Source: Xanthomonas campestris pv. campestris str. ATCC 33913
GTDB taxonomy: Bacteria > Pseudomonadota > Gammaproteobacteria > Xanthomonadales > Xanthomonadaceae
Length of the DNA: 32,000 nt
Reading direction: 5' to 3'
Assembly (NCBI RefSeq): GCF_000007145.1
Contig: NC_003902.1
Span: forward strand, 4,406,497-4,438,496
Both the position numbers and the translations under genes were made by a program. Under the pieces are notes generated by a model that was given only the letters and a program-made list of their open reading frames with translations, was not told the DNA's origin and made no database searches. Shown here piece by piece: positions 1,298 through 31,750 of the stretch. Positions within the stretch are counted from its first letter, which is position 1. Each line of letters starts with the position of its first letter.

Positions 1298-2461
1298 ATG
1301 CTCGCCCTCAACTATCACGGCTCGCGCGATGTGCGGGTTGAAACGGTACCCGACCCGTTGCTGGTGGAACGCGACGACCTGATCCTGCGGGTGACCGCCA
1401 CCGCGATCTGCGGTTCGGACCTGCATCTGTATCACGGCAAGATTCCCGACCTGCGCCCTGGCGACATTCTCGGCCACGAATTCATGGGTATCGTGGAAGA
1501 GGTGGGCCCGGATGTCACCGCAGTGCGTCCGGGCGACCGTGTGGTGATTCCGTTCGTGGTGGCGTGCGGCCAGTGCTTCCACTGCCTGCTGCAGGAATTT
1601 TCGGCCTGCGAAACTACCAACACCGGCAAGGGTGCGGCGCTCAACCACAAAGACATGCGCCCGCCTGCGGCATTGTTTGGCTTCAGCCATCTTTATGGCG
1701 GTTTGTCTGGTGGGCAGGCGGAATACGTGCGCGTACCCAAGGCCAACGTCGGCCCGCTGGTGGTGCCCGATGCCCTGCACGATGAGCAGGTGTTGTTCCT
1801 CTCCGACATCCTGCCCACCGGCTACCAGGCGGTGGTGGACGCAGGCGTCAAGCAGAGGTCCACCGTGGCCATCTTCGGCGCTGGCCCGGTCGGCCTGATG
1901 GCCGCGGCGTGCTGCCGCATGCTGGGCGCCGAACGGGTGTTCATGGTCGACCGCCACGCCTACCGGCTGGACTTCGCATCACGCACCTACGGTGTCATCC
2001 CGATCAACTTCGACGAGATCGACGACCCGGCCGACATCATCGTCTCGCAGACCGATGGCCGCGGCGTGGATGCCAGCATCGAGGCAGTGGGGTTCGAAGC
2101 CGAAGGCAGTGCGCTGGAAACCGCGTTGACCACCTTGAAGCTGGAAGGCAGCAGCGGCGTGGCGTTGCGCCAGTGCATCGCCGCCACCCGCCGCTGCGGC
2201 ACGGTGAGCGTGCCCGGCGTGTATGCCGGTTTCATCCATGCCTTCATGTTTGGCGATGCGTTCGACAAGGGGCTCACCTTCAAGATGGGCCAGACCCACG
2301 TGCAGAAGCACATGCCCTACCTGCTGGAGCGCATCGGCAATGGCGAGCTCAAGCCCAGCGCCATCATCTCGCACCGGTTGCCGCTGGCCGAGGCCGCGCG
2401 TGGCTACGAGGTGTTCGACAAGAAGCAGGACGATTGCCGCAAGGTGGTGTTGACGCCCTGA
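1298..2461 (+). CDS. Zn-dependent alcohol dehydrogenase family protein (glutathione-independent formaldehyde dehydrogenase-like)
   Basis: Track ORF, 387 aa. GGAG lies 6 nt before the ATG. Motifs: CGSDLH, GHEFMG, structural-zinc Cys cluster [25 protein letters not shown], Rossmann GAGPVGL. Overall layout matches medium-chain dehydrogenases of the formaldehyde dehydrogenase type. Confidence 0.9.
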
Positions 2462-2476
2462 TCGGCACACGCATCC

Positions 2477-2530
2477 TGCAGGAACGACAACGGCGCGGTC
2501 CCCGAGGGCCGCGCCGTTGTCGTTCCTGCA
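2477..2530 (+). terminator. Long perfect hairpin after the dehydrogenase gene (terminator-like, no U tract)
   Basis: 22-nt arms TGCAGGAACGACAACGGCGCGG (2477-2498) / CCGCGCCGTTGTCGTTCCTGCA (2509-2530). Starts 16 nt after the stop codon. Confidence 0.5.
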
Positions 2531-2567
2531 CTTGATGCTGAGTGACGCGTACAGCGCGCGTGGACTG

Positions 2568-3633
<1,066 letters not shown>

Positions 3634-3642
3634 GGATTTGCG

Positions 3643-3870
3643 ATGAATAATTCCCGCCGCCAGTCGATGACCGTCAGCAACCAGCCGGGCAAGCCGCGTT
3701 TGTCCGAACAGCGCCTGGCCGCCGATCTGGAAGAATTCCACAAGTCCGGCGGTGCGATCGAGCGCCTGGGCGACACGCCGCTGCGCCGTGAAAAGAAGCG
3801 TGGCGCGCCGGAGACCCCGGCTGCAGCAGCTGCGCCCGCCAAGGCCGCCGCGGACGCGGACACGGAATAA
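3643..3870 (+). CDS. Small hypothetical protein (75 aa), probably co-transcribed with the YkgJ-like gene
   Basis: Track ORF. GAGGA lies 7 nt before the ATG, and the gene starts 9 nt after the upstream stop. High GC3. Ala-rich, charged C-terminus. No family recognised. Confidence 0.55.
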   Translation: MNNSRRQSMTVSNQPGKPRLSEQRLAADLEEFHKSGGAIERLGDTPLRREKKRGAPETPAAAAAPAKAAADADTE

Positions 3871-3882
3871 GCACGCCGCAAG

Positions 3883-3910
3883 ACGACAGCCGGCCAGGCG
3901 CCGCTGTCGT
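3883..3910 (+). terminator. Weak hairpin after the 75-aa ORF
   Basis: ACGACAGC (3883-3890) / GCTGTCGT (3903-3910) with a 12-nt loop, 13 nt after the stop. No U tract. Confidence 0.3.
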
Positions 3911-4234
3911 GCCGTATGCGCTTTGCGGTTGAGGCGAGCAGTCGCTGTGCCTACCGATGCATCTGCTGCCTGCGCCGCACCACTGCCGCGCACGGCGCCT
4001 GTCACCAACATCAAACGTTGATCATCGCTGCAGGCTGTGCCGTTTCTGCTAGACGAGCCGGCCAGCGGGAAATCCGCTGCACTTGGCACGGCCAGGGCAG
4101 GTAGAGCAGCTCAACGTCATCAAGCGCATTGCGGGCAAACAGTCGCGCAATGACCAAGCGAAACCTCAACGACAACGGCTGCAGCAATCGAACGCTTGCG
4201 CTGCGGAATGCCGGGTCGAACAGCGCCCTGCCCG

Positions 4235-4382
4235 CTTGGAGCGGCTAACAAAACGTAGCGAGCAGTCGTCAGGTGGGTGCGGACGGCGCGGAGGAACCGG
4301 AGTGTACGGGGGTACATGCCGATTCCGAGCACCGGCCGCGCCCGCCTGGCGGCTGCGCAGTCGTGTTGATAGCTGCTCTTAG
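4235..4382 (+). repeat. MITE-like palindromic repeat, copy B (core 4240-4377; flanks CTTGG / CTTAG)
   Basis: Near-identical to copy A over the central part (CAGGTGGGTGCG..GGCGCGGAGGAACCGG.GTGTACGGGGGTAC.TGCCGATTCCGAGCACCGGCCGCGCCCGCCTGGC.GCTGCGC). Its right flank supplies the TAA of the minus-strand gene ending at 4379. Confidence 0.8.
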
Positions 4383-4660
4383 TCCTCCTGCCGCCGCAGC
4401 ACCAGATACCGCCGCCAGTGCACGCCCAGCGCGTCATGCACGTCGCCTTCGGGCATCGAATCATGTGGGCAGGCCAGATTGAGTTCGTGCCGCCAGTGGA
4501 TGCCGAACTCGCCGCCGGGCCACGGTGAAATCTGATACCCCTCGGGGATCAACAATTCCGGCGCCGAATCGGCCTGCAGCGTCTGCCCATCCTGCGGGCC
4601 GCCCACCAGATGCAGACGCACGCACCCTTCTTCTTCATTCACGACCGTACTCCTCAACAT
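4379..4660 (-). CDS. Hypothetical small protein (93 aa from ATG 4660; 87 aa from GTG 4642, which has a GAGGAG RBS 7 nt upstream)
   Basis: 3' part of track ORF 4379..4843: (MLRSTV)VNEEEGCVRLHLVGGPQDGQTLQADSAPELLIPEGYQISPWPGGEFGIHWRHELNLACPHDSMPEGDVHDALGVHWRRYLVLRRQED. Protein-like composition and high GC3. No family recognised. Confidence 0.45.
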   Translation of the reverse strand: MLRSTVVNEEEGCVRLHLVGGPQDGQTLQADSAPELLIPEGYQISPWPGGEFGIHWRHELNLACPHDSMPEGDVHDALGVHWRRYLVLRRQED

Positions 4661-4918
4661 GGCGGGACTGGTCGCATCCAGCGGGTTGGGGCGGCGCGCT
4701 GCGCAAACGGAAGCATGCAATGGCAACGGTGCACTGCACGGTTGCCAGACGACGCCCCGACTGGCAGTGCTCGTGTTTCCACCAGCGCGTGCCATCGATT
4801 GCATGGAGTCTAGAAGCAGGCGCCGCAGGCAGAGCGTGAACACTGCGGCAGCGTGGAGTGAGCCGTGTAGCGGCAGCGCGCATGGCGCTACGCCATAGCG
4901 CCATGCGCGCTCAGCGGA

Positions 4919-5131
4919 TTACAACAGCTGCGCGCGGCCGACCGCGCCGAGACCTTGTGCCAGCGCAGCCATTTCGTTGGCCAGCGCGATGACGTCGCCA
5001 CCGGCCTGTGCGGCGGTGGTCATGATGCGTTGATAAGCGTCCCAGAAGTCCGGTCCACTGCCATAGGCGTCGTGGAACCCTTGCAGCTCCAAGACCAGCA
5101 GATCGGACACTTGCATGTCAGAGCGGTCCAT
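4919..5131 (-). CDS. Hypothetical small protein (70 aa)
   Basis: Track ORF. GAGG lies about 8 nt before ATG 5131. Helical-looking text MDRSDMQVSDLLVLELQGFHDAYGSGPDFWDAYQRIMTTAAQAGGDVIALANEMAALAQGLGAVGRAQLL. No family recognised. Confidence 0.45.
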   Translation of the reverse strand: MDRSDMQVSDLLVLELQGFHDAYGSGPDFWDAYQRIMTTAAQAGGDVIALANEMAALAQGLGAVGRAQLL

Positions 5132-5728
5132 TGTGTTTACCTCGTTGGGGAATGTCCCCGGCCCGCAGCTTATACCCGTTCACCTTACAAAACCGGGTCC
5201 ACCAGGCGACAGCGGCGGCGAACCTGAATCGGTTAAATTGCTGGCGTCGCGTGGCCTGAAACAGTGTGTCTGCGGCCGCCAACACCGCGATTCTGCAGCG
5301 CTTTTTGACACGGAGGACACATCCGCAGCAGAGCATGTCCATCCGCATTATCCAAATGCATTGTTGACGCTGCAGGCGCACTCAACTGTGGAACCAGTTG
5401 CATGGCCAGCAGGCACGCTCGCATCTGCTCGTAGTGCGAGCACTCGCGATACGCGCTGCAGCTTCCCAAGCTACGGCTCTACTCTCGAACCGCCTGGCCA
5501 CGCATCTGCGTTTGGAATGAACGAATTTCCCGCTTCAAGTGCGTTGGCGAGCACCCTACTTGCCCACTCAAATGCAGCACGTCTAAACCCCGGTCAGGCG
5601 GGTGTGCCAGGACTGCTTCTTGCGGCGTCTTCGTTGCAAGACAGCTCCGGCAACACCTGTGACCGACCCAGATCACGACGCAATCAGCTCACTGCGCACT
5701 GCCGCAGCACACCACGCGCAACCACCAC

Positions 5729-7942
5729 TCATCCCGCACGCCGGGGCAGTTGCGCCAACAACTTGTCCAGCGTAATCGGGTAGTCGCGCACGCGGATGCC
5801 GGTGGCGTTGTAGACCGCATTCGCCAGCGCCGGCGCCACGCCGGTGAGCCCCAGTTCGCCCACGCCTTTGGCTTTCAACGGCGACATGGTCGGGTCCACC
5901 TCGTCGATGAAATGCGCCTCCAGATGCGGGATATCCGCATGCACCGGCACCTCGTAACCGGCCAGGTCGTGATTGACGAAAAATCCCAGCCGGGTGTCCA
6001 CCACCATGTCTTCCATCAACGCCGCACCCACGCCCATCACCATGCCGCCGATCACCTGGCTGCGTGCGGTCTTGGGATTGAGGATGCGCCCGGCCGCGCA
6101 CACCGCCAGCAACCGGCGCACGCGGATTTCGCCGGTGTCGGCATCCACCGCAACCTCGGCGAAATGCGCGCCGAAGGTTTGCTGCGCGTACTGCTGTTTG
6201 AGCGTGCCGAACTCCATCGCGTCTTCGGCCACCAGCTCGCCGCCGGCGGCCGCCTGCGCCAGCGCAATGGAACGCGGGCCGGCGTGCACCTGGCCGTCGG
6301 CAAAGCGGGCCTGGTCCACCGGCATGCCCAGGCGCTGCGCCACCGTCGCGCGCAACTGCATGCAGGCGGCATACACGCCGGCAGTCACCGAGGCGGCACC
6401 TTGCTGCCCGCCGGAACCGGGCGTTTCCGGAAAGCTGGAGTCGCCCAGCCGCACCACCACCTGGTGCAACGGCAGGCCGAGCAGCTCGGCCGCGGTTTGC
6501 GCCACGATGGTGTAGCTGCCGGTGCCGATGTCGGTCATGTCGGTTTCGATGGTCAACGTGCCGCTGCGGTCCAGCCGCGCACGCGCAGCGGCCTTGGAGA
6601 TCGGCGCGCCGCGAATGGCCGCAGCCATGCCCATGCCGATCAACCAACGGCCGTCGCGCACGCTGGCCGGCGTGGGGTTGCGTCGCGACCAGCCGAAGCG
6701 CTGCGCGCCGCTGCGCAGGCACGCGATGAAGGGCCGCGTGGAGAACGGCCGCTGCGGCTGTTCCGGGTCCACCTGGGTGTCGTTGACGATGCGCAGCTGC
6801 ACCGGGTCCATGCCCACGCGTTCGGCCAGTTCGTCCATGGCCACCTCCAGCGCCATCATCCCCGGCGCCTCGCCGGGCGCGCGCATGGCATTGCCTTCGG
6901 CCAGGTCCAGCACCGCCAGCCGCACCGCGGTCATGCGGTTGGCGCCGGCGTAGAGCGCGCGCGTGGACAAGGGGGTGGGCTCGCTGCGGCCGCCGCGCAG
7001 ATTGCCGGACCAGCTTTCATGGCCGATCGCGGTGAGCCGCCCGTCGGCGCCGGCGCCCAGCCGCAGGCGCTGGATGGTCGCCGGCCGGTGGATGGTGCTG
7101 TTGAACATCAGCGGGCGCTGCAGGGCCAGCTTGACCGGCCGCCGGGTGATGCGCGCGGCCAGCGCCGCCAGCACCAGATCCGCCTGTGCGGTGCCCTTGC
7201 CACCGAAGCCGCCGCCGATGAACGGCGACAGCAGCCGGATGCGCTCCTTGGGCATGCCCAGCGCCTTGCCCAGGTCGCGCGTGCCCCAGTTCATCTGCTG
7301 GATCGCGGTGTGGCAGATCAGCTGCTCGCCTTCCCAGCGCGCGATGGTGGCGTGCGGCTCCAGCATCGCGTGCGCCTGGTCGGGCGTGCGAAAGGTGGCA
7401 TCCACGGTGAACGGCGCGGCGGCATAGGCGGCGGCGAAGTCGCCCTGGGCGGTCTGTGGCGGCCCGCCGAACGGCGCCTGTGGCGCCACCGGGGCACTGG
7501 CCTGCTGGGCGGCGAGGTCGTAGTGGCCGCGCTCACGCGCGTAGCGCACCCGCACCAGCGCCGCACCGGCGCGGGCCTGTTCAAAGCTCTCGGCCACCAC
7601 CACCGCCACCGGCTGATGGTAGTGGTCCACCTGCGGCGCGGCCAGAAACCGCTGCACATAGAAGTCGCCGGTGCCCAGCGCGGGCACGTTCTGGTGGGTG
7701 AGCACCGCGATCACCCCGGGCGCGGCGAGTGCGGCGGCAGTGTCCAGTGCGGTGATGCGCCCCTTGCCGATCGCCGCGCCGAGAATGTAGCCGTAGGCCA
7801 TCTGCCCGGGCTGGTCATGCCATTCATAGGCGTAGTGGGCCTGCCCGGTCACCTTGAGCGGCCCGTCCACGCGATCGACCGGCTGGCCCAGCACTTTGAG
7901 CTGGTCGGCGGGCGTGGCGCCTGCGGGGGTGTCGAACTTCAT
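5729..7942 (-). CDS. Xanthine dehydrogenase-family molybdopterin-binding subunit (PaoC/YagR-like aldehyde oxidoreductase large subunit), 737 aa
   Basis: Internal start of track ORF 5729..8128. AGGAGC-N6-ATG at 7942. The N-terminus MKFDTPAGATPADQLKVLGQPVDRVDGPLKVTGQAHYAYEWHDQPGQMAYGYILG... closely parallels E. coli PaoC as I recall it. Length and the C-terminal Moco-domain text fit. Confidence 0.88.
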   Translation of the reverse strand: MKFDTPAGATPADQLKVLGQPVDRVDGPLKVTGQAHYAYEWHDQPGQMAYGYILGAAIGKGRITALDTAAALAAPGVIAVLTHQNVPALGTGDFYVQRFLAAPQVDHYHQPVAVVVAESFEQARAGAALVRVRYARERGHYDLAAQQASAPVAPQAPFGGPPQTAQGDFAAAYAAAPFTVDATFRTPDQAHAMLEPHATIARWEGEQLICHTAIQQMNWGTRDLGKALGMPKERIRLLSPFIGGGFGGKGTAQADLVLAALAARITRRPVKLALQRPLMFNSTIHRPATIQRLRLGAGADGRLTAIGHESWSGNLRGGRSEPTPLSTRALYAGANRMTAVRLAVLDLAEGNAMRAPGEAPGMMALEVAMDELAERVGMDPVQLRIVNDTQVDPEQPQRPFSTRPFIACLRSGAQRFGWSRRNPTPASVRDGRWLIGMGMAAAIRGAPISKAAARARLDRSGTLTIETDMTDIGTGSYTIVAQTAAELLGLPLHQVVVRLGDSSFPETPGSGGQQGAASVTAGVYAACMQLRATVAQRLGMPVDQARFADGQVHAGPRSIALAQAAAGGELVAEDAMEFGTLKQQYAQQTFGAHFAEVAVDADTGEIRVRRLLAVCAAGRILNPKTARSQVIGGMVMGVGAALMEDMVVDTRLGFFVNHDLAGYEVPVHADIPHLEAHFIDEVDPTMSPLKAKGVGELGLTGVAPALANAVYNATGIRVRDYPITLDKLLAQLPRRAG

Positions 7943-8248
7943 GTGGGTGCTCCTGAGGGGGACGGGCGGGCGGCGCGCCACCGCGCGCCTGGGCGCTGGC
8001 AAGGGCCTGGCACTGCCAGATCGGCCTGAATCAGCCGGCGCACGCGGCGGCTCGGACAGCCGCCAATGCCTACCCGTTTGTAGCAAACGCAGGCGCCGCC
8101 CGGAGCTCGTTTCCCGGCATGGGGTCATGAACAGGCCTCATGAATCGGCCGGATGCAGGCGCTGCGGGCAAGGCTGCCTCTCCCTGCAGCCATTGCCCGC
8201 GCTGCGACCGGCAAAGCTTGCATGGTCAAGCAGCCGCCTGGAGGAAAG

Positions 8249-8362
8249 CCCATCCCCTCCCATCCCCCTCCCATCTCCCCGCGATCTCCCCGCGCCCCGA
8301 CGAATCCCGATTCCCCATTCCCGATTCCCCATTTCCCATTCCCGACTCCCCATTCCCCCTCC
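8249..8362. repeat. C-tract / G-tract microsatellite-like repeat (units ATTCCCC, GATTCCC, CCCATC); G-quadruplex-prone on the minus strand
   Basis: I count 16 runs of 3-5 C within 114 nt, separated by 1-7 nt: cccatcccctcccatccccctcccatctccccgcgatctccccgcgccccgacgaatcccgattccccattcccgattccccatttcccattcccgactccccattccccctcc. Lies in the 512-bp divergent intergenic region. Confidence 0.85.
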
Positions 8363-8454: not shown

Positions 8455-9189
8455 ATGGCGAAAGCTCCTCCACGGGCGCCCCTCTCGGGCCCGGCGTTCA
8501 TTCGCCTGCTCGCTCGCCTCACCGACGTCCACGTCGCGCAGTCCAACCACGCGCTGGCCGATCGGCTGAGCCAGTGGATCGACTGGACGCGCGCCGTTGC
8601 CGTGTCCAAGGCACTGGACGGCAAGCTGCCCGACGCCGAAACGCTGCCCGAGGTGAACGCCATCGGTGCCGACGACTGCGCGCGCCTGCGCGCCACCCTG
8701 GCCACCAGTTGCGTGACCGAGCTGGACACGCTGCTCACCCGGCTGCGCAGCGAGGCCCGCGCCGCCGCGGCCGCAGGCGCCCCCGCACCACTGGCCGACT
8801 ACGCACCGTTCCGGCAGCACTACCTGGCCATGCAGCGCGGCATGCGCAGCACCACCGGCGATTTGCGCGGCCGGCTGCGCGACATGCTGGCGCAATCGGG
8901 CAACGGCGAGATGGCGCGCCTGGCCGAAGTGGACGCGGTGATGGAACTCACCCTCAGCCCGCGCGAGCAGAGCCTGCTGGCCACCGTGCCCACCCTGCTC
9001 GGCACCCATTTCGAACGCCTGCGCGCGGCCCACCACCCCGCGCAGGACACCGACACCGCGCCAGCACGCCCCGGCTCGGATGCCTGGCTGGACGTGTTCC
9101 GCAACGATTTGCAGAGCGTGTTGCTCGCCGAACTGGAAGTTCGTTTTCACCCTATCGAAGGCCTGCTTGCAGCGCTTCGCACCCGCTAA
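8455..9189 (+). CDS. DUF3348-like protein (244 aa); first gene of the motor-like operon
   Basis: Track ORF 8443..9189, with ATG at 8455 preferred. High GC3. Helical text (FIRLLARLTDVHVAQSNHALADRLSQWIDWTRAV...). The family assignment is from memory of DUF3348 proteins, which neighbour DUF802/OmpA/DUF2894 genes. No signal peptide, TM segment or NTPase motif seen. Confidence 0.7.
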   Translation: MAKAPPRAPLSGPAFIRLLARLTDVHVAQSNHALADRLSQWIDWTRAVAVSKALDGKLPDAETLPEVNAIGADDCARLRATLATSCVTELDTLLTRLRSEARAAAAAGAPAPLADYAPFRQHYLAMQRGMRSTTGDLRGRLRDMLAQSGNGEMARLAEVDAVMELTLSPREQSLLATVPTLLGTHFERLRAAHHPAQDTDTAPARPGSDAWLDVFRNDLQSVLLAELEVRFHPIEGLLAALRTR

Positions 9190-9199
9190 TTGGGACGTC

Positions 9200-11857
9200 A
9201 TGTTCAGAACTCTCGTGTCCGTTTTCGTGTTTCTTGTTGGCCTGCTGGCGGTGTGCTGGGTCGGCATCGGTTACCTCGGCTCCAACCCGCTCGGCGCATT
9301 GGTCGCCGCGGTCATCGGGGCGTGCTACATCGCCGGTGCGCGGGAGCTGTACCACTACCGCCAGGCCACCATCGCGCTGGAGCAGGCGCTCGAAGGTGTG
9401 AGCAGCGCACCCGCTGCGTTGGCCGACTGGCTGCAGACCGTGCCCGCCGGGCTGCGCAACGCCGTGCGCCTGCGCATCCAGGGTGAACGCGTGGCGCTGC
9501 CGGCGCCGGTGCTCACGCCGTATCTGGTTGGCATGCTGGTGCTGCTGGGCATGCTCGGCACCCTGCTTGGCATGATGGCCACGCTCAAGGGCACCGGTTT
9601 TGCACTGCAGAGCGCCACCGACCTGCAGGCCATCCGCGGCTCGCTGGCGGCACCGGTGGAAGGCCTTGCGTTCGCGTTCGGCACCTCCATCGCCGGCGTT
9701 GCCACCTCGGCCATGCTCGGGCTGCTGTCGGCGCTGTGCCGGCGTGAGCGCCTGCAGGCCGTGCAACAGCTCGACCTGAAGATTGCCACCGCGTTGCACA
9801 CGTATTCGGACGCGCACCAGCGCGGCGAGACCTTCAAGCTGCAGCAGCAACAAAGCGCGCTGATGCCGGCCCTGATCGACCGCCTGCAGGCATTGATGGC
9901 CAGCATCGAGCAGCACAGCGCCGCCGCCGATGCACGGCTCACCGCGCAGCAGGCCGAATTCCATGCGCGCACTGAAACCGCCTACCTGCGCCTGGCCGAC
10001 TCCCTGCAGCAGTCATTGCAGGCCGGTGTGGCCGACAGCGCCCGCGCGGTGGGCGATGCATTGCAGCCGGCGATGGCCGCCACCATGGCCGGCATCGCGC
10101 AGGAAACCACCGCCCTGCATGCGCGCATCAGCGACGCGGTGCAGCAGCAGCTGGAAGGCATCAGCACCGGCTTTGCGCACAGTGCCAGCGCCGCCAGCGC
10201 GCACTGGAGCACGGCGATGACCGCGCAGGAACGTGCGCAGCAGGCGCAGACCGAACAGCTGCAGCACGCGCTCGCACAGATGGCGCAGCAGACCACCGCG
10301 CTGCAGGACAGCGTGGGCCAGGCCGTGCAGCAGCAGCTGGGCGTGCTGACAGACGGATTCGAACGCAGCACCAGCGCTGCCGCCGCCAACTGGCAGGCCG
10401 CGCTCACCGCGCAGGAACAGGCCCAGCAGGCGCTCACACAACAACTGCAGAGCACCCTCGCACAACTCGCCGCGCAAACCACCGCACTGCAGGACAACCT
10501 TGGCCAGGCGGTGCAGCAGCAACTGGCTGCGCTCAACGATGGCGTTGCGCACAGCACCGCCGCGGCGGCCGCAGGCTGGGCCGCGGTGCTGGCCGAACAC
10601 CAGCAGTCCACCCAGGCGCTCAGCGCGCAGTTGCAGCGCACGGTGGAGCAGATTGCCGAGCACAGCACCACGCTGCAGGATGGCGTGGGCCAGGCGGTGC
10701 AGCAACAGCTCGACGGGCTCAGCACCGGCTTCGCCGCCAGCACCGCCACTGCCGCGCAGACCTGGACGGCGGCAGCGAGCGAACAGCAACGCGCCAACCA
10801 GAGCCTGACCGATGCACTGCACACCACGCTGACGCACTTCGCCAGCACGTTTGAAGCACGCTCCGAAGCCTTGGTGGATGCGGTGTCCGCGCGCCTGGAA
10901 CAGTCCAGCAGCCAGACCGCCGATGCCTGGAATGCCGCGCTGGCGCAACAGCAGCAGGCCAGCGCGGAGCTGGCCGCACAGCACCAGGGCGCACTGAGCG
11001 CAGCCACCGCCAGCAGCGAGGCGCACGCCGCCGCGTTGATCGGCACGCTGCAGCAGGCGCATATTGAGTTGCAGGCCGCACTGGAAGCACGCGACGACAC
11101 CCGCCTGGCGCTGTGGAGCGAGCGCTTCACCGCGATGAGCACGCGCCTGAGCGCGCAATGGGAACACACCGGCCAGCAAGTGGCGCAGCAGCAACAGGCC
11201 ATCTGCGACACCCTGGCCGCCACCGCCAGCGAGCTCTCCACGCAGGCGCAGGCACAGGCCAGCGCCACCATTGCCGAAGTGTCGCGCCTGATGCAGATCG
11301 CCGCCGAAGCCCCCAAGGCCGCTGCCGACGTGGTGGCCGAGCTGCGCCAGAACCTCTCCGAAAGCATGGTGCGCGACACCGCGATGCTGGAAGAGCGCAG
11401 CCGCTTGCTCGCCACGCTGGACACCTTGCTCAACGCGGTCAATCACGCCTCCACCGAACAACGCGTCGCCGTCGATGCACTGGTCAGCACCTCGGCCGAT
11501 CTGCTGCAGCGTGTGGGCAGCCAACTCACCGAACAGATCGGCACCGAGACCAGCAAGCTCGAAGCGGTGGCCGCGCAGGTCACCGGCAGCGCGGTGGAAG
11601 TGGCCAGCCTGGGCGATGCGTTCGGACACGCGGTGCAGTTGTTCAGCACCTCCACCGGCGAGCTCAACGACCGCCTGCAGCACATTGCCGGCGCACTGGA
11701 TGCCGCGCAGGCGCGCAGCGACGATCAGCTGGCGTATTACGTGGCGCAGGCGCGCGAAGTGGTGGACCTGAGCATGCTCTCGCAGAAGCAGATCATCGAA
11801 GAACTGCGCCTGCTCGATGACCGCCGCGTGGACGCCAACGGAGCGCAGCCGGCATGA
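9200..11857 (+). CDS. MotA/ExbB/TolQ-like channel protein fused to a ~700-aa repeat-rich helical tail (DUF802-like), 885 aa
   Basis: ATG 9200 lies inside track ORF 9080..11857, 10 nt after the upstream stop. Four hydrophobic helices: LVSVFVFLVGLLAVCWVGIGYL, LGALVAAVIGACYIAGA, LVGMLVLLGMLGTLLGMMATL, GLAFAFGTSIAGVATSAMLGLLSAL. The last pair matches the MotA_ExbB signature (compare ExbB LGLLGTVWGIM...ALLATAIGLVAAIP). The rest is Ala/Gln/Leu-rich with a 62-aa periodicity. Confidence 0.8.
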   Translation: MFRTLVSVFVFLVGLLAVCWVGIGYLGSNPLGALVAAVIGACYIAGARELYHYRQATIALEQALEGVSSAPAALADWLQTVPAGLRNAVRLRIQGERVALPAPVLTPYLVGMLVLLGMLGTLLGMMATLKGTGFALQSATDLQAIRGSLAAPVEGLAFAFGTSIAGVATSAMLGLLSALCRRERLQAVQQLDLKIATALHTYSDAHQRGETFKLQQQQSALMPALIDRLQALMASIEQHSAAADARLTAQQAEFHARTETAYLRLADSLQQSLQAGVADSARAVGDALQPAMAATMAGIAQETTALHARISDAVQQQLEGISTGFAHSASAASAHWSTAMTAQERAQQAQTEQLQHALAQMAQQTTALQDSVGQAVQQQLGVLTDGFERSTSAAAANWQAALTAQEQAQQALTQQLQSTLAQLAAQTTALQDNLGQAVQQQLAALNDGVAHSTAAAAAGWAAVLAEHQQSTQALSAQLQRTVEQIAEHSTTLQDGVGQAVQQQLDGLSTGFAASTATAAQTWTAAASEQQRANQSLTDALHTTLTHFASTFEARSEALVDAVSARLEQSSSQTADAWNAALAQQQQASAELAAQHQGALSAATASSEAHAAALIGTLQQAHIELQAALEARDDTRLALWSERFTAMSTRLSAQWEHTGQQVAQQQQAICDTLAATASELSTQAQAQASATIAEVSRLMQIAAEAPKAAADVVAELRQNLSESMVRDTAMLEERSRLLATLDTLLNAVNHASTEQRVAVDALVSTSADLLQRVGSQLTEQIGTETSKLEAVAAQVTGSAVEVASLGDAFGHAVQLFSTSTGELNDRLQHIAGALDAAQARSDDQLAYYVAQAREVVDLSMLSQKQIIEELRLLDDRRVDANGAQPA
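10106..10849 (+). repeat. Four tandem 186-bp (62-aa) intragenic repeats inside the tail of the MotA-like protein
   Basis: Repeat starts at 10106, 10292, 10478 and 10664: TTALHARISDAVQQQLEGISTGFAHSASAASAHW... / TTALQDSVGQAVQQQLGVLTDGFERSTSAAAANW... / TTALQDNLGQAVQQQLAALNDGVAHSTAAAAAGW... / STTLQDGVGQAVQQQLDGLSTGFAASTATAAQTW... Degenerate copies flank them on both sides. Confidence 0.9.
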
Positions 11858-12501
11858 GCGATGAGATCGACCTCGATGGCGAATCCGCCGCACCGATCTG
11901 GGCCGCGTTCGGCGACCTGATGTCGGTGCTGCTGGGCGCGTTCGTGCTGATCCTGGTCGGCGTGATCGGCGTGCAGTTGCAGCTGTCCAGCCGCCTGGAC
12001 GACGAGGTCAAGCAACGCCAGGCCGAAGCGCAGCGCCGCAAGACCCTGGAACAGGCGTTGGCCGCACCGCTGGCCGCCGGCCGCGTCACCCTGGTCAACG
12101 GCCGCATCGGCATCCGCGGCAGCGTGCTGTTTGCGCTCAATTCCGACCAGCTGCAGCCGGAAGGCCGCGAGGTGTTGAAGAGCCTGGCCGCGCCACTCTC
12201 CGAGTACCTGGTGTCGCGCGAAGAGATCCTGATGATCAGCGGCTTCACCGACGACCGCCCGGTGCTGGACAGCAACCGTCGCTATGCCGACAACTGGGAA
12301 CTGTCCGCGCAACGCGCGCTCACCGTCACCCGTGCGCTAATCGCCGAAGGCGTGCCCGCCTCTTCGGTGTTCGCGGCCGCTTTCGGCTCGCAGCAGCCGG
12401 TGGATTCCAACGCCGACGAAACGCGCCGCGCCAAGAACCGCCGTGTGGAAATCGCGCCGATTCCGCGCCCGTCGGCCACCGCTACTGCCGCACCACGATG
12501 A
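11854..12501 (+). CDS. MotB/OmpA-family peptidoglycan-binding stator-like protein (215 aa)
   Basis: Track ORF. The start overlaps the upstream stop (ATGA). Single N-terminal TM with an embedded Asp (PIWAAFGDLMSVLLGAFVLILVGV, D21), as in MotB/ExbD/TolR/ZorB. C-terminal OmpA-like domain motifs: ISGFTDDRPV, NWELSAQRALTVTRAL, NRRVEI. Confidence 0.88.
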   Translation: MSDEIDLDGESAAPIWAAFGDLMSVLLGAFVLILVGVIGVQLQLSSRLDDEVKQRQAEAQRRKTLEQALAAPLAAGRVTLVNGRIGIRGSVLFALNSDQLQPEGREVLKSLAAPLSEYLVSREEILMISGFTDDRPVLDSNRRYADNWELSAQRALTVTRALIAEGVPASSVFAAAFGSQQPVDSNADETRRAKNRRVEIAPIPRPSATATAAPR

Positions 12502-13211
12502 GCCGCACCGCGTCATCCACCCAGGCTCAGCTGGAACAGTGGCGCGCGCAAGGCGCCGACCAGCGCGACCCGGTGCGCTTCCATCTGATGCAGACCTTGC
12601 AGGCACGTGCCGCCACGCAGCCGCCGGCCGTGCGTCAGGTGCTGGAAGACAAGCTCGCCGCGTTGGTGACGGCCTATGCACAGGCGCGGCAGCCGGCGCC
12701 GGTCTCCGTGCCCGTACCTGCGCCGGCACAACCACCGGCCGCGCCCAAATCGCGCGCGCGCAACAAGCGCAGCGCCGCACCTGCGCCTGCACCGGTCTCC
12801 GCACGCCAGGCACTGAGCGAGCTGCTCACGCAGATGGCCGGCCACACCGCACTGCTCAGCGACAGCAGCACCGGCAATGCCGCGCATGCTCCGCAATTCC
12901 CCGAGTTGCCGGCGCTGGACGACTTCCGCCGCACCTGGGCCACCGTGCGCACCGCCAGCCAGGTGCGGCAATCGCTGCAGGACGCACCCGCCGATGCCGG
13001 CCCGCTCAATTCCAGCGTGCTGGTGCATCGATGCATCAGCCTGATGCGCGCGCAAGCGCCCGGCTATCTGCAGCACTTCCTCGCCTACGTCGATGCCTTG
13101 TCGTGGATGGAGCAGCTGCAGCACGGCGGCGCACTGGCCACTGAAGCGCCGGCACCGGCATTGCCGGGCAAGAAACGCAGCCGCAGCGCGGCGCCGAAGC
13201 GACGCGCTTAG
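12498..13211 (+). CDS. DUF2894-like protein (237 aa); last gene of the motor-like operon
   Basis: Track ORF. The start overlaps the upstream stop (ATGA). Two helical segments separated by a Pro/Ala-rich linker (QPAPVSVPVPAPAQPPAAPKSRARNKRSAAPAPAPVSA). Conserved-looking PGYLQHFLAYVDALSWMEQL and a basic C-terminal tail GKKRSRSAAPKRRA. Family assignment is from memory. Confidence 0.7.
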   Translation: MSRTASSTQAQLEQWRAQGADQRDPVRFHLMQTLQARAATQPPAVRQVLEDKLAALVTAYAQARQPAPVSVPVPAPAQPPAAPKSRARNKRSAAPAPAPVSARQALSELLTQMAGHTALLSDSSTGNAAHAPQFPELPALDDFRRTWATVRTASQVRQSLQDAPADAGPLNSSVLVHRCISLMRAQAPGYLQHFLAYVDALSWMEQLQHGGALATEAPAPALPGKKRSRSAAPKRRA

Positions 13212-13354
13212 AGCAGCGATCAAACCGACTGCGCAGCCGCCAGGCGGGCGCGGCCGGTGCTCGGAATCGGCACGTACCCACGTACATTCCGTTTCCTCCG
13301 CGCCGTCCGCACCCACCTGACGACTGCTCGCTACGGTTTGTTAGCCGCGCTTAG
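13207..13354 (-). repeat. MITE-like palindromic repeat, copy C (inverted; core 13212-13349; perfect CTTAG / CTTAG flanks)
   Basis: The reverse complement aligns end to end with copies A and B. The left CTTAG contains the TAG stop (13209-13211) of the DUF2894-like gene. Confidence 0.85.
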
Positions 13355-13364
13355 CCGCACGAAT

Positions 13365-13387
13365 GCGATGTGCGTAACGCACGTCGC
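13365..13387. terminator. Short hairpin between convergent genes
   Basis: GCGATGTGCG (13365-13374) / CGCACGTCGC (13378-13387), 3-nt loop, one G-T pair. Lies between MITE copy C and the 3' end of the TonB-dependent receptor gene. Confidence 0.3.
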
Positions 13388-13514
13388 CATCGCGGCGCGC
13401 GCACTATCGCCTTCTGGGGACTCTTTCGATCCGGTCTCGCGTGCTATGCAGCGCCCGCTGCAACGGCGCAGCGTCCTGCACGGCGACCGCGCAGCAGACG
13501 AACGGGCGCGCACC

Positions 13515-15653
13515 TCAGAACCTCAGCCGTGCGCCCACCGTCCAGGTGCGCGGCGCGCCCGGATACACCCATTGTTCGCTGTATGAAAACGCGGCGTAGC
13601 GGCGGTCGGTGAGGTTTTCCACCTTTGCATACAGCCGCAGACGCTCGCTGAGGTCGTAATGGCCTACCAGGCGCCACACCGTGTAGGCCGGCAACACGAA
13701 GCCGGTGTTGCTGTCGACCGACCCCAGCCGCTCACCGGTGCGCGACACGCCCACCCCCACCGCGGCGCTGCGCGTGCCGCTCAACGGTTGCGCGTAGTTG
13801 ACGAAGGCATTGCCGCTGAAGCGTGGCACGTTCGGAAAGCGGCGCCCTTCCGCCAGCCCGGTGCCCATTGCAGCGGCGCTGCTGCGGGTCACCTGCGAAT
13901 CGGTATAGGCCAGGCCCACCGAGGCGGCCAGGTGCGGAGTGAGCCTGCCCAGCAGATCCAGTTCTGCGCCTTCGCTACGCATCTGCCCCACCGGCAACGA
14001 AAAACTGGTGTCGGCCGGATCCAGGCTCAACACGTTTTCCTTGTCGATACGAAACACCGCCAGCGTCGCTTCCAGGCCCTCACCGGGCTGCACGTATTTC
14101 AGGCCGGTTTCCAGCGAGCGGCTCTTCTCGGGCGCGAAGCTTTGCCCGTTGGCACCCACGCCGCTATTGGGCCGAAACCCGGCCGCCGCACTGGCGTATA
14201 GCGACAGCGTGTCGTCCAGATGCACGGTGAGCCCGGCACGCGGGCTGATGACACCGTCGGAGGCTTGCTGCGTGGTTGCGCGCAGACGGTTGGCAATGTC
14301 CTGCTGATAGTGGTCGTAGCGCACGCCGAGCAAGGCCTTCCAGCGCGCGCCCAGATCGATCTGGTCCTGCGCATAGACGCCCCACACCTGTTGTCGCTCG
14401 TCGGTATCGGTGATCGGCGCCAACCGCCCGGGTTGCGCCACGCCATAGCGCGGTGCCAGCACGTCGATGCTGTAGGGCGTGGCCGCCGAGCGCGCGCGCA
14501 GCTGGTAGCGACTGTCGTTGAAGCGGTTGCCATCGATGCCGAACAACACGTGATGGGCGACCTTGCCGCTGCCGAGCGTGCCCAGCAGTTCGGCGCGCGC
14601 GGCGATGTCGCGGCCCTGGTAGTCGCGGTAGCGGCGCTCGCGCCGCAGCGTGCGATCGTCGGCCTGCAGCGTCCACGGCTCGGTGGAAAAGCCGCGCATG
14701 CCACTGTCGCGATACGTGGCACCGCCCTGCAACGACCAAGTCTGATTCAAACCATGCACCGCGAACACCTGGTGGCCGGTGGAATGCAGATCGATGTCGC
14801 CATCACCCGGCTCGCCCAGAAAGCGCGACGCCGGCAAGCGATTGGCATCGCCATCGATCGCGGTCACACCGCGATCGAACGGGGTGTGGATGCGCAGCAG
14901 TTCCAGCTCGTAGGACACCGTAGTGTCGGGCGTGGGCATCCACAGCAGCGACGGCGCCAGCAGCGTGGCGTCGCTATCGACCGTGTCGCGAAAGCTGTGC
15001 TGGTCCTTGTGCATGAGATTCACGCGGTAGGCCACGGTTTCGCTGAGCGGGCCGGTGCTGTCCAGCGCCGCGCGGTAGCTGTCAAAGCGCCCCGCAGACA
15101 GGTCCACGCTGTGCTGCGCATCGAACAAGGGTTTCTTGGTGACGATATTCACCGCACCACCTGGCTCGCCGCGCCCGTACAACGCAGACGCTGGCCCCTT
15201 GATCACTTCCACGCTCTGCGTGTTGGCGCCATCGCGCAGGCCGTTGTAACCGCGGCTGGCGTTGAAGCCGTTGACCATGTAGTCGGAACTGAAGTTGGGG
15301 TCGCCGGTGAACCCGCGGATCGAATAGCTGTCCCACAGCCCGCCCAGGTTATTGGCCTTGGTGATGCCGCTGGCCATGTCCAGCGCGCCGGCCAGATCGG
15401 TGACGCCGGCATCCTCCAGCAAGCTGTGGTCGAGCACGCGTGCACTGATCGGCAGATCGCGCAGCGGTGCTTCGGTCTTGGTGGCGCCGGTCACCGTCAG
15501 TGCGCGGTACGGTGCGTAGTCGCTGCGTACTTGCACCGCGTCCAGGCTGCGCGCCTGTGGCTCGGCCGCAGTGGCCGGCGCGGCGGCGCAGGCGAGCACG
15601 CCAAGCAGCGGCAGCGCCGAGACAACGTGGCGGCGTGGAAGAAGACTGGACAC
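13515..15653 (-). CDS. TonB-dependent (siderophore-type) outer-membrane receptor, 712 aa
   Basis: Internal GTG start at 15653 (AGGAG 9 nt upstream) of track ORF 13515..15725. Signal peptide ...LPLLGVLACAAAPATA/AEP. Plug-domain text (VTGATKTEAPLRDLPISARVL, VEVIKGPASALYGRGEPGGAVNIVTKKP). Beta-barrel text ends in the terminal aromatic ...TVGARLRF. Confidence 0.9.
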   Translation of the reverse strand: MSSLLPRRHVVSALPLLGVLACAAAPATAAEPQARSLDAVQVRSDYAPYRALTVTGATKTEAPLRDLPISARVLDHSLLEDAGVTDLAGALDMASGITKANNLGGLWDSYSIRGFTGDPNFSSDYMVNGFNASRGYNGLRDGANTQSVEVIKGPASALYGRGEPGGAVNIVTKKPLFDAQHSVDLSAGRFDSYRAALDSTGPLSETVAYRVNLMHKDQHSFRDTVDSDATLLAPSLLWMPTPDTTVSYELELLRIHTPFDRGVTAIDGDANRLPASRFLGEPGDGDIDLHSTGHQVFAVHGLNQTWSLQGGATYRDSGMRGFSTEPWTLQADDRTLRRERRYRDYQGRDIAARAELLGTLGSGKVAHHVLFGIDGNRFNDSRYQLRARSAATPYSIDVLAPRYGVAQPGRLAPITDTDERQQVWGVYAQDQIDLGARWKALLGVRYDHYQQDIANRLRATTQQASDGVISPRAGLTVHLDDTLSLYASAAAGFRPNSGVGANGQSFAPEKSRSLETGLKYVQPGEGLEATLAVFRIDKENVLSLDPADTSFSLPVGQMRSEGAELDLLGRLTPHLAASVGLAYTDSQVTRSSAAAMGTGLAEGRRFPNVPRFSGNAFVNYAQPLSGTRSAAVGVGVSRTGERLGSVDSNTGFVLPAYTVWRLVGHYDLSERLRLYAKVENLTDRRYAAFSYSEQWVYPGAPRTWTVGARLRF

Positions 15654-28924: not shown

Positions 28925-30430
28925 CTACGCGCTCAAGCGCGCGCGATTGCGTCCAGCCTGCTTTGCCGCGTAAAGCGCATCGTCGGCGCATTTCAATAGT
29001 CCGCTTGCATCGACCTCCTTGTTGAACGCGCTATAGCTATATGCCCCGACGCTGACAGTGAGGTAGCCCTCCGGACTGTCGTCGTGCGCAATCTGCAGCC
29101 CACGAATACTCTCCACAATGCGCTCGGCTGCTGCCAGCACCGCAGCCTGGTCGCATGAGGGAAGTAACACAGTGAGCTCTTCTCCACCGTACCTGGCAGC
29201 GAGATTGCCAGCGCGCCGCGTGTGGTTCTTCAGCACATTGGCGATTGCCTTGATGCAGAGGTCGCCTGCAGGGTGGCCATAATAGTCGTTGTACCGCTTG
29301 AAATAATCGATATCGACCATGATCACGCCGAGCGGCTGCGATGTTCGCTTTGCGCGCTTGATCTCGGCGGGCAACACCACATCAAGCTGCCTGCGGTTCG
29401 CCAGACCGGTCAGGCTGTCCTGCATGGCAATGGCTTCCACTGCGGCATAGGCCAGTCGCAGCTCATCTTCGACTTTCAGCGTTGTCTTTATCTGGCGCGA
29501 AATAAGCGTCGCAAAGAGGACTGGAATCGGAAGGATCAGACAGAGCATGATCAATGAGCCATACAAACTCTCGTACCACGACCCGAGAATTGCACGCTTT
29601 GACTTGCCGGCCAGTACGACAAGCGGATAGCGATTGAGGCGTTCGTAGCCATACATACGCTCCACCTTGTCAGTGATCGCAACCACCATGTGCACGCCCC
29701 GCGATGCATGCGGCAGGTACTTCGAAAAGATATCCCCCTTGGCGATATTTCTACCAATCATGTTCGTGTCGAATGGATGACGCACCATGATGGTTCCGTT
29801 TTGATCTGCGAGAACGATCACACCTTGCTCGTCCATTCTGAAATCGGCATAGAACCTACTGAAGTACTGCACGCGAAGAGTCACTAGAAAAACCCCTCCG
29901 AAGTTTCCATCCTTGTTATTGATTCGCCTGGACACCGGAATAACCAGCTCGCCGGTCGAACGACTTGTAATCACAGGTCCGACGTGCACACGCTCACCCG
30001 CATGCGCCTTGTGATAGTGGAAATATTCCCTGTCAGCATTGTTGGCTGACGCAGGAACCTTGTCCTTGTCGGTGACTATCCAGTTACCCTTTTCGTCGTA
30101 AACGAAGATTCCGTGCAATTGCGGAAGGCTGCGTACCTGACGCTGGAAGAGAAGATGGAGCCGATTCCTGTCGATGTTCTCGAATCCGTCGCCTTCAATT
30201 CGCTCCACCACGCTCATGGAGAGTATGTCGGCGTCCTTGATTGCATCATCCGCATGTTGCCCCACGGAGTGGGCAAGATTCTCAGTTGTGCTACGGGCCG
30301 CGTCCAATGCGGAACGGTATCCCGTCCATGTCTGGTAGGCGTTGGTGCCGACCATCAACAGGATCATTGCCGCCGCAAAATAGGGAACAGATCTTAGAAT
30401 GACGCGTTGCCAATTGAAGGGAACTACCAT
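28925..30430 (-). CDS. Membrane sensor diguanylate cyclase (periplasmic Cache-like domain + GGDEF), 501 aa
   Basis: Track ORF. TM1 VPYFAAAMILLMVGTNAY, a ~255-aa extracytoplasmic region, then TM2 LYGSLIMLCLILPIPVLFATLI. GGDEF domain text: DSLTGLANRR, VDIDYFKRYNDYYGHPAGD, RYGGEELTVLL. The I-site position reads RAGN, not RxxD. GC is lower than in the flanks. Confidence 0.9.
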   Translation of the reverse strand: MVVPFNWQRVILRSVPYFAAAMILLMVGTNAYQTWTGYRSALDAARSTTENLAHSVGQHADDAIKDADILSMSVVERIEGDGFENIDRNRLHLLFQRQVRSLPQLHGIFVYDEKGNWIVTDKDKVPASANNADREYFHYHKAHAGERVHVGPVITSRSTGELVIPVSRRINNKDGNFGGVFLVTLRVQYFSRFYADFRMDEQGVIVLADQNGTIMVRHPFDTNMIGRNIAKGDIFSKYLPHASRGVHMVVAITDKVERMYGYERLNRYPLVVLAGKSKRAILGSWYESLYGSLIMLCLILPIPVLFATLISRQIKTTLKVEDELRLAYAAVEAIAMQDSLTGLANRRQLDVVLPAEIKRAKRTSQPLGVIMVDIDYFKRYNDYYGHPAGDLCIKAIANVLKNHTRRAGNLAARYGGEELTVLLPSCDQAAVLAAAERIVESIRGLQIAHDDSPEGYLTVSVGAYSYSAFNKEVDASGLLKCADDALYAAKQAGRNRARLSA

Positions 30431-30529
30431 GCGTTTCCCGCCCTATGAGGTGTGTCGCTCATGCATCTACTTGTCGACAGGAAAGGAATCTGAATCCGAA
30501 GAGGCGGCCCAGCCCGTCGCGCGCAGAGT

Positions 30530-31390
30530 CTAGAGCTTCGACCACGACGCACCCACGTTTTCTGGAAAGAGAAGTGCAACAAAAGACGGTGAGGTTTGCG
30601 CATTCGTCACCACCTGCAGCAAGATCCGCTTGCCCGAGAAGCTGCCCGCGTTCAAGGTGACGGGAAGGACACCGCTATCGTGGGCGCGCGTTTTCAAGCT
30701 TAAGCGTTCGTTCGAATCGCCTTTCCAGAGTGCGTTGGCGGAAGAAGCAACCAACGCTGCCTTGGTCATTCCCAATAAGTCGCAACACGCTGTGTTGACA
30801 GCGACCAGCGCCTCATCGGCACCGAACACCGCCATGGCGATTGGCGAGAAGTCGAAGCCTATCTGCTTCGCATCCGCTTCCAGGTTCGATGACAGGTCGC
30901 TCTTCAAACGGCTAAAGACATAATGGCTGGCCTTTTCCGCCAGCTGATTCATCAACCGCAGCTCGTCCTCATTCAGCTCTTTTGGCTGGGCGTCGAGGGC
31001 GCAGAGGGTTCCCACGACCAGACCGTTTTCGCTGCGTAGCGGTATCCCTGCATAGAAGCGAATGTAGGGCGGCCCTTGGACGAGCGGGTTGTCCTTGAAT
31101 CGAACATCGGTCAAGGCATCATGCACAAACAGCGCCTCCCCCGCACCCACTGCATGCGCGCAAAAAGACACGTCCCGCGATGTTTCGCAGGCATCGAGAC
31201 CGACTCTGGATTTGAACCATTGCCGGTCTGCGTCCACCAGCGAAATCAATGCGGTGGACACCTGCAATTTCTCGGCCAGTTCGCGCGTGATCTCGTCAAA
31301 GACCTCTTCTGCCGCTGTGTCCAGGATATCGAGCTGACGCAGGAGGCGAAGGCGCGCCTGCTCATTTTTCGGATACGGTGCAATGAGCAT
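30530..31390 (-). CDS. GAF + PAS-like sensor protein without output domain (286 aa)
   Basis: Track ORF. N-terminal text PKNEQARLRLLRQLDILDTAAEEVFDEITRELAEKLQVSTALISLVDADRQWFKSRVGLDACETSRDVSFCAHAV...FYAGIPL...GTLCALD is the GAF type that often precedes GGDEF/EAL or kinase domains. The C-terminal ~110 aa look PAS-like. Confidence 0.85.
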   Translation of the reverse strand: MLIAPYPKNEQARLRLLRQLDILDTAAEEVFDEITRELAEKLQVSTALISLVDADRQWFKSRVGLDACETSRDVSFCAHAVGAGEALFVHDALTDVRFKDNPLVQGPPYIRFYAGIPLRSENGLVVGTLCALDAQPKELNEDELRLMNQLAEKASHYVFSRLKSDLSSNLEADAKQIGFDFSPIAMAVFGADEALVAVNTACCDLLGMTKAALVASSANALWKGDSNERLSLKTRAHDSGVLPVTLNAGSFSGKRILLQVVTNAQTSPSFVALLFPENVGASWSKL

Positions 31391-31645
31391 AGTCGAGGAC
31401 CAGGGAAGCAGCCCCGATCATAGCGCCCTGCATGCTACCCATACGGTCGTGCTCGTTTGACAGCAAAGACCGCGAACCCAAGACGCATGCAGGCTAGTGG
31501 CATGCCGACCACGAAGCGCTTCTGCAGATCCGTCTCCGGCTAGGGCTGTGCTCTATCAGCTTTGAATCTAGGCGACATCACCACACGTATCGGAGTCGGC
31601 GTCAGCAGTGCGGGACGCGATCAAAAAACACAACCTCGCATCGTG

Positions 31646-31690: not shown

Positions 31691-31750
31691 TTTGACGTCA
31701 ACGCGCCATGCCTAGGAAAACCACGCATAAGACAACGTAAGCAGCAGAAC

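Follow-up and report, generated by a model that had tools for sequence, protein, structure and literature searches.

What does a membrane motor do when the operon that encodes it holds no recognisable effector? The question is raised by four genes of Xanthomonas campestris pv. campestris str. ATCC 33913 (contig NC_003902.1), which lie at 8455–13211 of a 32,000-nucleotide stretch of DNA (positions 4,406,497 to 4,438,496 of the forward strand; hereafter the window, in whose numbering coordinates are given). A preliminary description, made from the sequence without database searches, had read these genes as an operon for a ZorAB-like, peptidoglycan-anchored motor of the stator type with a giant tail and two small partner proteins. 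We conclude that these genes very probably make up a full Zorya type III system with which X. campestris defends itself against phage, with the mechanism that is proposed below.

Four coupled genes and their assignment to Zorya type III

All four genes are on the + strand. Gene 1 (g1; 8455–9189, 244 amino acids (aa)) ends with a TAA at 9189 and is followed directly by a gap of 10 nt, TTGGGACGTC, after which comes gene 2 (g2; 9200–11857, 885 aa). The other two junctions are ATGA overlaps, one at 11854–11857 between g2 and gene 3 (g3; 11854–12501, 215 aa) and one at 12498–12501 between g3 and gene 4 (g4; 12498–13211, 237 aa). The gap, the two overlaps and the coordinates were exactly as first described, and all the peptide motifs quoted then were located in g2 and g3: LLGMLGTLLGMMATL, FAFGTSIAGVATSAMLGLL, FGDLMSVLL (which contains Asp21) and GFTDD...NWELSAQRA...NRRVEI. 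Each of the four frames carries the coding signature GC3>GC1>GC2 (the G+C content of the third, first and second codon positions), with a GC3 of 0.81–0.85. An alternative TTG start for g1 at 8443 would give 248 aa, the length of a 99%-identical NCBI protein from X. campestris pv. raphani; the consensus of the g1 alignment starts at the ATG at 8455, not at the TTG. The g4 product is 96–99% identical to other X. campestris proteins. Scans for sigma-70 promoters and intrinsic terminators gave nothing usable for the operon boundaries.

The type III models of PADLOC were matched nearly full length by all four proteins. Gene 1 matched ZorG3 (9e-88, residues 1–243), g2 matched ZorA3 (E=0, 1122 bits), g3 matched ZorB3 (1.5e-116, residues 1–211 of 215) and g4 matched ZorF3 (2.3e-68). 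The PADLOC models for Zorya types I and II were matched weakly by g2 and g3 (ZorA1 at 5.1e-11, g2 residues 111–195). Pfam assigned g1 to DUF3348 (3.8e-91), five stretches of the g2 tail to DUF802 (2.9e-45), g3 to OmpA (2.1e-19) and g4 to DUF2894 (8.8e-65), which are the four families named in the preliminary description.

Gene content and gene order are also those of type III. The zorA gene encodes a MotA/ExbB-like head and a long helical tail, as seen from its ZorA3 match, from the match of its head to the solved ZorA 8vvn_C and from the amphipathic character of its tail. The zorB gene encodes a protein with a single transmembrane (TM) segment, a conserved Asp and an OmpA/MotB-like peptidoglycan-binding domain. 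A DUF3348 gene lies 10 nt upstream of zorA, and a DUF2894 gene overlaps zorB by an ATGA. The order DUF3348, zorA, zorB, DUF2894 on one strand is the canonical one, given as zorGABF/zorFABG (PMC11946911). Beside zorAB we found neither ZorC with ZorD (a helicase-nuclease) nor ZorE (an HNH protein); g1 and g4 matched the ZorG and ZorF models only. Ten flanking open reading frames (ORFs), among them all those lacking a Pfam match, gave no PADLOC match.

The names of the two accessory proteins are used in opposite ways. In the text of Payne 2021 (PMC8565338) and of Mariano 2025 (PMC11890865), DUF3348 is ZorF and DUF2894 is ZorG. In PADLOC-DB, DUF3348 is ZorG3 and DUF2894 is ZorF3, and Hu 2024 prints both zorFABG and zorGABF (PMC11946911). 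We therefore refer to the partners by their family names.

Payne et al. 2021 based their definition of Zorya type III on 6,401 RefSeq instances in which zorAB is flanked by DUF3348 and DUF2894 genes (PMC8565338). In the same work the operon of Stenotrophomonas nitritireducens DSM 12575, placed in Escherichia coli BL21-AI, significantly reduced the plaquing of at least one phage, and it prevented culture collapse at a multiplicity of infection (MOI) of <0.1 (PMC8565338). In later Zorya papers type III appears as the third subtype, with Xanthomonas as one of the main hosts (PMC11890865, PMC11946911). The S. nitritireducens and X. campestris operons share the four families, their order, the single strand and the coupled frames, and both hosts belong to the Xanthomonadales. 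They differ in sequence: the closest Stenotrophomonas loci that we fetched are 52–57% identical to the X. campestris locus in DUF3348, 68–73% in the ZorA head, 73–83% in ZorB and 36–65% in DUF2894. By extension from the S. nitritireducens operon, the X. campestris copy would be expected to act against phage.

Because each of the four proteins is matched end to end by its type III model and the type was published in 2021 with an activity test, the locus is an ordinary member of a catalogued system, already known and not new. Judged from sequence, its membership in Zorya type III appears almost certain; defence as its native role is a probable but distinctly less secure conclusion. The preliminary description had gone elsewhere on this point, taking the lack of a Zorya-type effector as a sign of a possibly new defence or signalling system that merely resembles ZorAB, and the four families as having no assigned function. 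Some observations lean that way. Public genome annotation names the proteins only DUF3348, DUF802, OmpA and DUF2894, g1 and g4 lack an NCBIfam model, and g2 lies under the NCBIfam ZorA_2 cutoff. It was the DUF-only labels and the missing NCBIfam models that made the families look unassigned. However, DUF3348 and DUF2894 are the named type III accessory proteins, a profile search assigns g1 and g4 to that known system (ZorG3 and ZorF3), and a homologous operon reduces plaquing. The dedicated type III models, together with the published instances, their activity test and the later listing of a third subtype, refute the reading as a new system, to which we give next to no weight. As such the locus is no discovery, since PADLOC would automatically call the system and Xanthomonas already figures among the main hosts listed for Zorya III.

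The ZorAB motor and its tail

Relatives of the locus were collected by a scan with a DUF3348 alignment, with one genome per species; 545 genomes matched and the best 80 were fetched. The ZorA head (residues 1–185, 9200–9754, + strand) has four hydrophobic segments, at residues 5–23, 29–47, 109–127 and 158–180, of which the second is marginal in hydropathy. The last two carry the channel signature, as had been proposed for a four-helix module. By the same hydropathy measure g3 has one hydrophobic segment and g1 and g4 have none, again in agreement with the first description. Across 79 Xanthomonadales ZorA sequences, residues 81–200 show 81–90% identity, and the head alignment contains many invariant columns. 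A profile built from 32 type III heads matched the type I ZorA of Shewanella solved by cryo-EM (8vvn_C) at 2.9e-5, over the two channel helices. By these sequence comparisons the ZorA head is a MotA/ExbB-like channel head, homologous to the structurally solved ZorA.

ZorB (11854–12501, + strand) has Asp21 directly before its single TM segment (22–40), followed by an OmpA-like peptidoglycan-binding domain (92–196). It scored 388 bits against NCBIfam PRK09040 (cutoff 194) and aligned to the type I ZorB 8vvn_B (4.5e-5, residues 12–173) as well as to the peptidoglycan-binding domains of MotB and PomB in the PDB. Asp21 is invariant in all 78 Xanthomonadales sequences, and the OmpA-type residues D133 and R154 are conserved in at least 97%. 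With the 8vvn_C and 8vvn_B matches and the OmpA domain, the ZorAB-like, peptidoglycan-anchored motor with two small partners holds good.

The MotB and PomB matches, along with a weak MotA_ExbB match on the channel helices, also raise the possibility that the operon encodes a spare flagellar stator (MotAB/PomAB) or an energiser of the Tol-Pal/ExbBD type. By homology the locus has in common with these complexes a 5:2-type ion-channel architecture and an essential Asp in the B subunit, and an OmpA-like anchor such as that of ZorB is also present in MotB and PomB. The generic models, however, stay below their cutoffs. NCBIfam MotB, MotD, MotS and Pal are far under theirs (58 versus 301 bits for MotB; 44 versus 125 for Pal_lipo), the Pfam MotA_ExbB match is itself sub-cutoff, and no TolQ, TolR or ExbD family match was found for the proteins of the locus. 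Unlike the stators, X. campestris ZorAB has no rotor-interaction loop and adds a helical tail of ∼700 aa, which is Zorya-specific and foreign to stators and ExbB. Neither in the window nor in the related loci is the operon linked to a flagellar, Tol or TonB gene. On the family cutoffs and the gene context we reject the flagellar-stator and Tol/Exb readings, whose chance we put at next to nil.

The closest structural counterpart is Zorya type I (ZorABCD of E. coli and Shewanella; 8vvn; PMC11946911, PMC11890865), which shares homologous ZorA channel helices, a ZorB with a TM Asp and a peptidoglycan-binding domain, and a long helical ZorA tail. Type I has ZorC and ZorD, a DNA-binding protein and a helicase-nuclease; the X. 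campestris locus lacks these, and ZorE (HNH) as well, and unlike the type I effectors its partners are two small helical proteins with no recognisable catalytic fold. Two further differences concern ZorA. The X. campestris protein has four hydrophobic segments, with an extra N-terminal one, whereas type I has three TM helices (PMC11946911), and its tail is built of DUF802 repeats, unlike that of type I.

The helical repeat tail of ∼700 residues that had been described from the sequence is borne out. Residues ∼185–885 are almost free of proline, with three prolines in all, and their hydrophobic residues recur with a period of 3.66 residues, ∼10 standard deviations above shuffled controls. This periodicity is consistent with an amphipathic helix or coiled coil of great length, like the one solved for type I. 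Within the tail, a protein self-alignment revealed four tandem DUF802-type repeats of 62 aa at residues 312–559 (10133–10876, + strand), and in the DNA a tandem-repeat search (TRF) found a period of 186 with 2.3 copies.

The two parts of the tail differ in conservation. In the 79 Xanthomonadales ZorA sequences the repeat region (residues 321–560) has an identity of 23–39% and an occupancy of 40–67%. The distal tail (residues 681–880; 11240–11839, + strand) has an identity of 66–89% at full occupancy, so that the tip is almost as conserved as the channel. Because occupancy and identity are low in the repeats and the distal 200 residues are conserved, the tail reads as a variable spacer that carries a conserved tip. 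Recruitment of the soluble effectors in type I depends on the tip of the tail (PMC11946911). By analogy, the two partner proteins probably make contact at the conserved ZorA tip, and the distal tail is thus a candidate docking site.

The length of ZorA varies between 625 and 893 aa among the related Xanthomonadales loci, and the X. campestris copy, with its four 62-aa repeats, is a long-tail form. We looked for a quantisation of the length in units of 62 aa, but the repeat counts did not track length cleanly; the sensitivity of the hidden Markov model used for the count, which was built from the X. campestris repeats, falls in distant species. The ZorA homologue of Pigmentiphaga litoralis (3668–7321 of fetched locus L082) has 1217 aa and is ∼330 aa longer than X. 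campestris ZorA.

The partner proteins and a proposed mechanism

The DUF3348 protein (8455–9189, + strand; ZorG3 in PADLOC-DB, ZorF in Payne 2021) is predicted to be soluble and all-alpha. Its AlphaFold2 model, made from an alignment of 80 sequences, has seven helices, with a mean pLDDT of 80 and a pTM of 0.75. The DUF2894 protein (12498–13211, + strand; ZorF3 in PADLOC-DB, ZorG in Payne 2021) is predicted to be a soluble helical protein that contains a linker rich in Pro and Ala and ends in a basic tail. Its model (mean pLDDT 73, pTM 0.37) is helical at residues 3–64, non-helical and of low confidence in the Pro/Ala-rich stretch at 65–101, and helical again at 102–209, ahead of the basic tail.

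The claim that the locus has no recognisable effector stands, as no enzymatic fold was found in the PDB and Foldseek searches. A sequence search of the PDB with g1, g2 and g4 returned nothing meaningful. Foldseek gave no match below E=0.25 for the DUF3348 model against the PDB and BFVD or for the DUF2894 model against the PDB, and the TM-scores for both models were 0.3 or lower, save for one coiled-coil fragment of 43 residues. With no significant Foldseek match, the folds give no indication of function. As modelled, then, both partners are all-helical proteins with no recognisable effector or catalytic fold. PHROGs holds no family for g1, g2 or g4. The DUF2894 family comprises 2,182 representative clusters (from a search of 1.84 billion representatives), and among the best 150 representatives we saw no domain fusions; all were stand-alone, single-domain proteins of 180–322 aa. 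The idea that DUF3348 and DUF2894 are paralogues was tried and rejected (hhalign probability 1.4%).

How might such a set of proteins work? By analogy with the type I and II cryo-EM structures, five ZorA subunits would surround two ZorB subunits in the inner membrane. When phage perturb the envelope, ZorB would anchor to the peptidoglycan and proton flow via Asp21 would rotate the ZorA ring together with its long tail, as in the scheme drawn from types I and II. The conserved tip of the tail would then relay the signal to the partner proteins, as modelled on type I.

The output is the most speculative part. Because the operon holds no nuclease or other enzyme, we cast the partners as gates or amplifiers of what the motor itself does: the output would be a leak of protons by the motor, which the two helical proteins would gate or amplify, with protection at the level of the population (abortive-type). 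Regulation of ZorAB by ZorF and ZorG was the original proposal (PMC8565338), and our view would agree with it and with the protection reported at low MOI; we offer this step tentatively, with the balance tilted against it. Alternatively, the partners might act on incoming DNA without enzymatic activity, by blocking or tethering it. The DUF2894 protein is net basic (27 K+R versus 15 D+E in g4) and could bind either DNA or the tail, which is net acidic; for ZorA as a whole the count is 81 D+E versus 47 K+R. These charges, counted from sequence, are compatible with an electrostatic contact between g4 and ZorA, and are no proof of one.

What is new here is the pair of partner models with no PDB match, the spacer-and-tip profile of the tail, and the fixed, non-island position of the operon in most Xanthomonas-labelled loci. 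Their value lies in the standing of type III, which is the sole Zorya subtype without a structure, a mechanism or a recognisable effector. The fold-orphan helical partners, and the variable repeat spacer with a tip as conserved as the channel, provide handles on it, together with the core-like inheritance of the system in Xanthomonas.

Chromosomal position, distribution and flanking sequence

The preliminary description had stated that the four families recur as neighbours in Xanthomonadales and Burkholderiales. The four genes are indeed adjacent and in the same order in all 77 Xanthomonadales loci that are not cut by a contig end, and the order is the same in three Burkholderiales loci (Burkholderia alba, Pigmentiphaga litoralis and the Ralstonia solanacearum megaplasmid). 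An alcohol dehydrogenase (ADH) gene upstream and genes for a TonB-dependent receptor and an ABC transporter downstream recur in most of the 37 Xanthomonas-labelled loci; the receptor gene lies on the other strand, and ∼11 of the 37 lack it in the flank. The shared flanks therefore point to a fixed chromosomal site in most of these loci.

Plasmid records gave 166 matches, all from Burkholderiales genera, and the 25 records listed were all replicons of 1.5–3.2 Mb, for example the Ralstonia megaplasmid, 135 records of which carry the system. Because the listed records are of this size, we see no evidence of carriage on small mobile plasmids. The only fetched locus on an annotated plasmid of moderate size is that of Dyella sp. 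20L07 (plasmid unnamed1, 371,618 bp; 10001–14402 of locus L057), which is a candidate for horizontal movement of Zorya III.

Core-like behaviour of this kind in Xanthomonas is unusual for an immune system. It feeds another explanation, namely that the locus is a conserved housekeeping device of the envelope, which senses or repairs perturbations of the envelope or peptidoglycan or performs some other mechanical task between envelope and cytoplasm, and that the phage protection seen in E. coli was a side effect of over-expression. The ADH, TonB-receptor and ABC flanks and the Ralstonia megaplasmid records fit this explanation, as do the neighbours of the operon elsewhere: among 131 ORFs that adjoin the system in 36 diverse loci, the Pfam families that occur often are metabolic or regulatory ones, and only a few ORFs match models for defence genes, for example AbiLi, MADS or PtuA-like ATPases. 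The window contains no other defence gene and its flanks no tRNA or mobile-element gene, no effector fold was recognised in the partners, and ZorB and the ZorA channel are 73–92% conserved.

Other evidence runs against a housekeeping role. The homologous operon cut the plaquing of at least one phage and stopped culture collapse at low MOI. Identities are 36–62% for DUF2894 and 52–78% for DUF3348 but 91–94% for ADH, so that the partners diverge far faster than the flanks, a pattern that fits an arms race at least equally well. In S. maltophilia and B. cenocepacia, phage elicits a response in transcripts of ZorG3/ZorF3 or of the operon's first genes, and a few relatives adjoin AbiL, MADS or other ATPase defence genes. 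On balance we regard the housekeeping explanation as improbable.

Several points nevertheless weigh against the assignment as a Zorya type III defence system. The generic family models fall short: whereas Pfam recognised DUF3348, DUF802, DUF2894 and OmpA, as the preliminary description had expected, MotA_ExbB on g2 reached only 16.8 bits (cutoff 22.9; residues 110–186) and MotB_plug on g3 only 12.7 bits (cutoff 24; residues 14–34), and NCBIfam ZorA_2 on g2 reached 32.9 bits (cutoff 100). The sole experiment was heterologous, used the Stenotrophomonas homologue and reported protection in liquid culture only at an MOI of <0.1 (PMC8565338). The 5:2 stoichiometry, the coiled-coil tail and the contact between partners and tail are ones that we infer by analogy. 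The same chromosomal position in most Xanthomonas-labelled loci is atypical of a mobile immune gene set. The co-occurrence of the four genes was as anticipated, but the operon lies outside any defence island, the flanks in the window being housekeeping genes with no PADLOC matches. A collection of phage genomes gave no match to the system, and the Ralstonia and Burkholderia copies are on replicons of chromid size.

The boldest reading would be that Zorya III in Xanthomonas and on the Ralstonia and Burkholderia chromids is a vertically inherited core component at a fixed locus, not a mobile immune module. The effector-less motor would itself be the output, either through a peptidoglycan-triggered proton leak or through the mechanical action of a length-tuned tail, gated at its tip by the partners, and its native role might include general sensing of envelope integrity. 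We consider this version unlikely, though a little less so than a housekeeping device. Zorya III that behaves like a core component in a major genus of plant pathogens is relevant to the phage biocontrol of Xanthomonas.

The sequence around the operon has features of its own. At 8301–8358 (+ strand), ∼100 nt upstream of g1, is a microsatellite rich in pyrimidines, (TCCCCAT) x 7.7, in which a period of 21 nt is nested, and a shorter CCCATCCCCCT repeat lies at 8249–8279. Both are in the divergent intergenic region between a gene of the xanthine-dehydrogenase family and the Zorya operon. The microsatellite is lineage-specific, because none of the 45 related loci that were checked has a comparable repeat in front of g1; it could be a locus of the variable-number tandem-repeat type or could affect expression.

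The left flank of the operon is indel-prone, as judged from the distance between ADH and g1, which differs between Xanthomonas species, and from the dehydrogenase gene at 5729–8128, which is present upstream of g1 only in three loci (L009, L012 and L013). Between the ADH gene and the gene for a molybdenum-binding dehydrogenase, a stretch of ∼3.3 kb (2461–5729) has a weak coding signal and holds two repeats similar to the Rfam family sX9 (a Xanthomonas small RNA); its ORFs gave no Pfam or PADLOC match.

In all, the window has three copies of this sX9-like element of ∼90 nt, at 13272–13346 (+ strand), 4243–4317 (− strand) and 2577–2650 (− strand), with scores of 80, 96.7 and 54 bits, respectively, and a mean column identity of 93%. 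It looks like a dispersed repeat, and none of the 83 fetched loci contains an exact match to its 27-nt core. The copy at 13272–13346 starts 61 nt past the g4 stop on the strand of the operon, forms a long hairpin with the sequence upstream of it (−71.9 kcal/mol, z=−4.8) and may mark the 3′ boundary of the operon.

At the far end of the window (29001–32000) the G+C content drops from ∼0.67 to 0.55–0.56. The genes there encode a dCache-GGDEF diguanylate cyclase (28925–30442, − strand) and a GAF-domain protein (30530–31417, − strand), and the segment may have been acquired horizontally.

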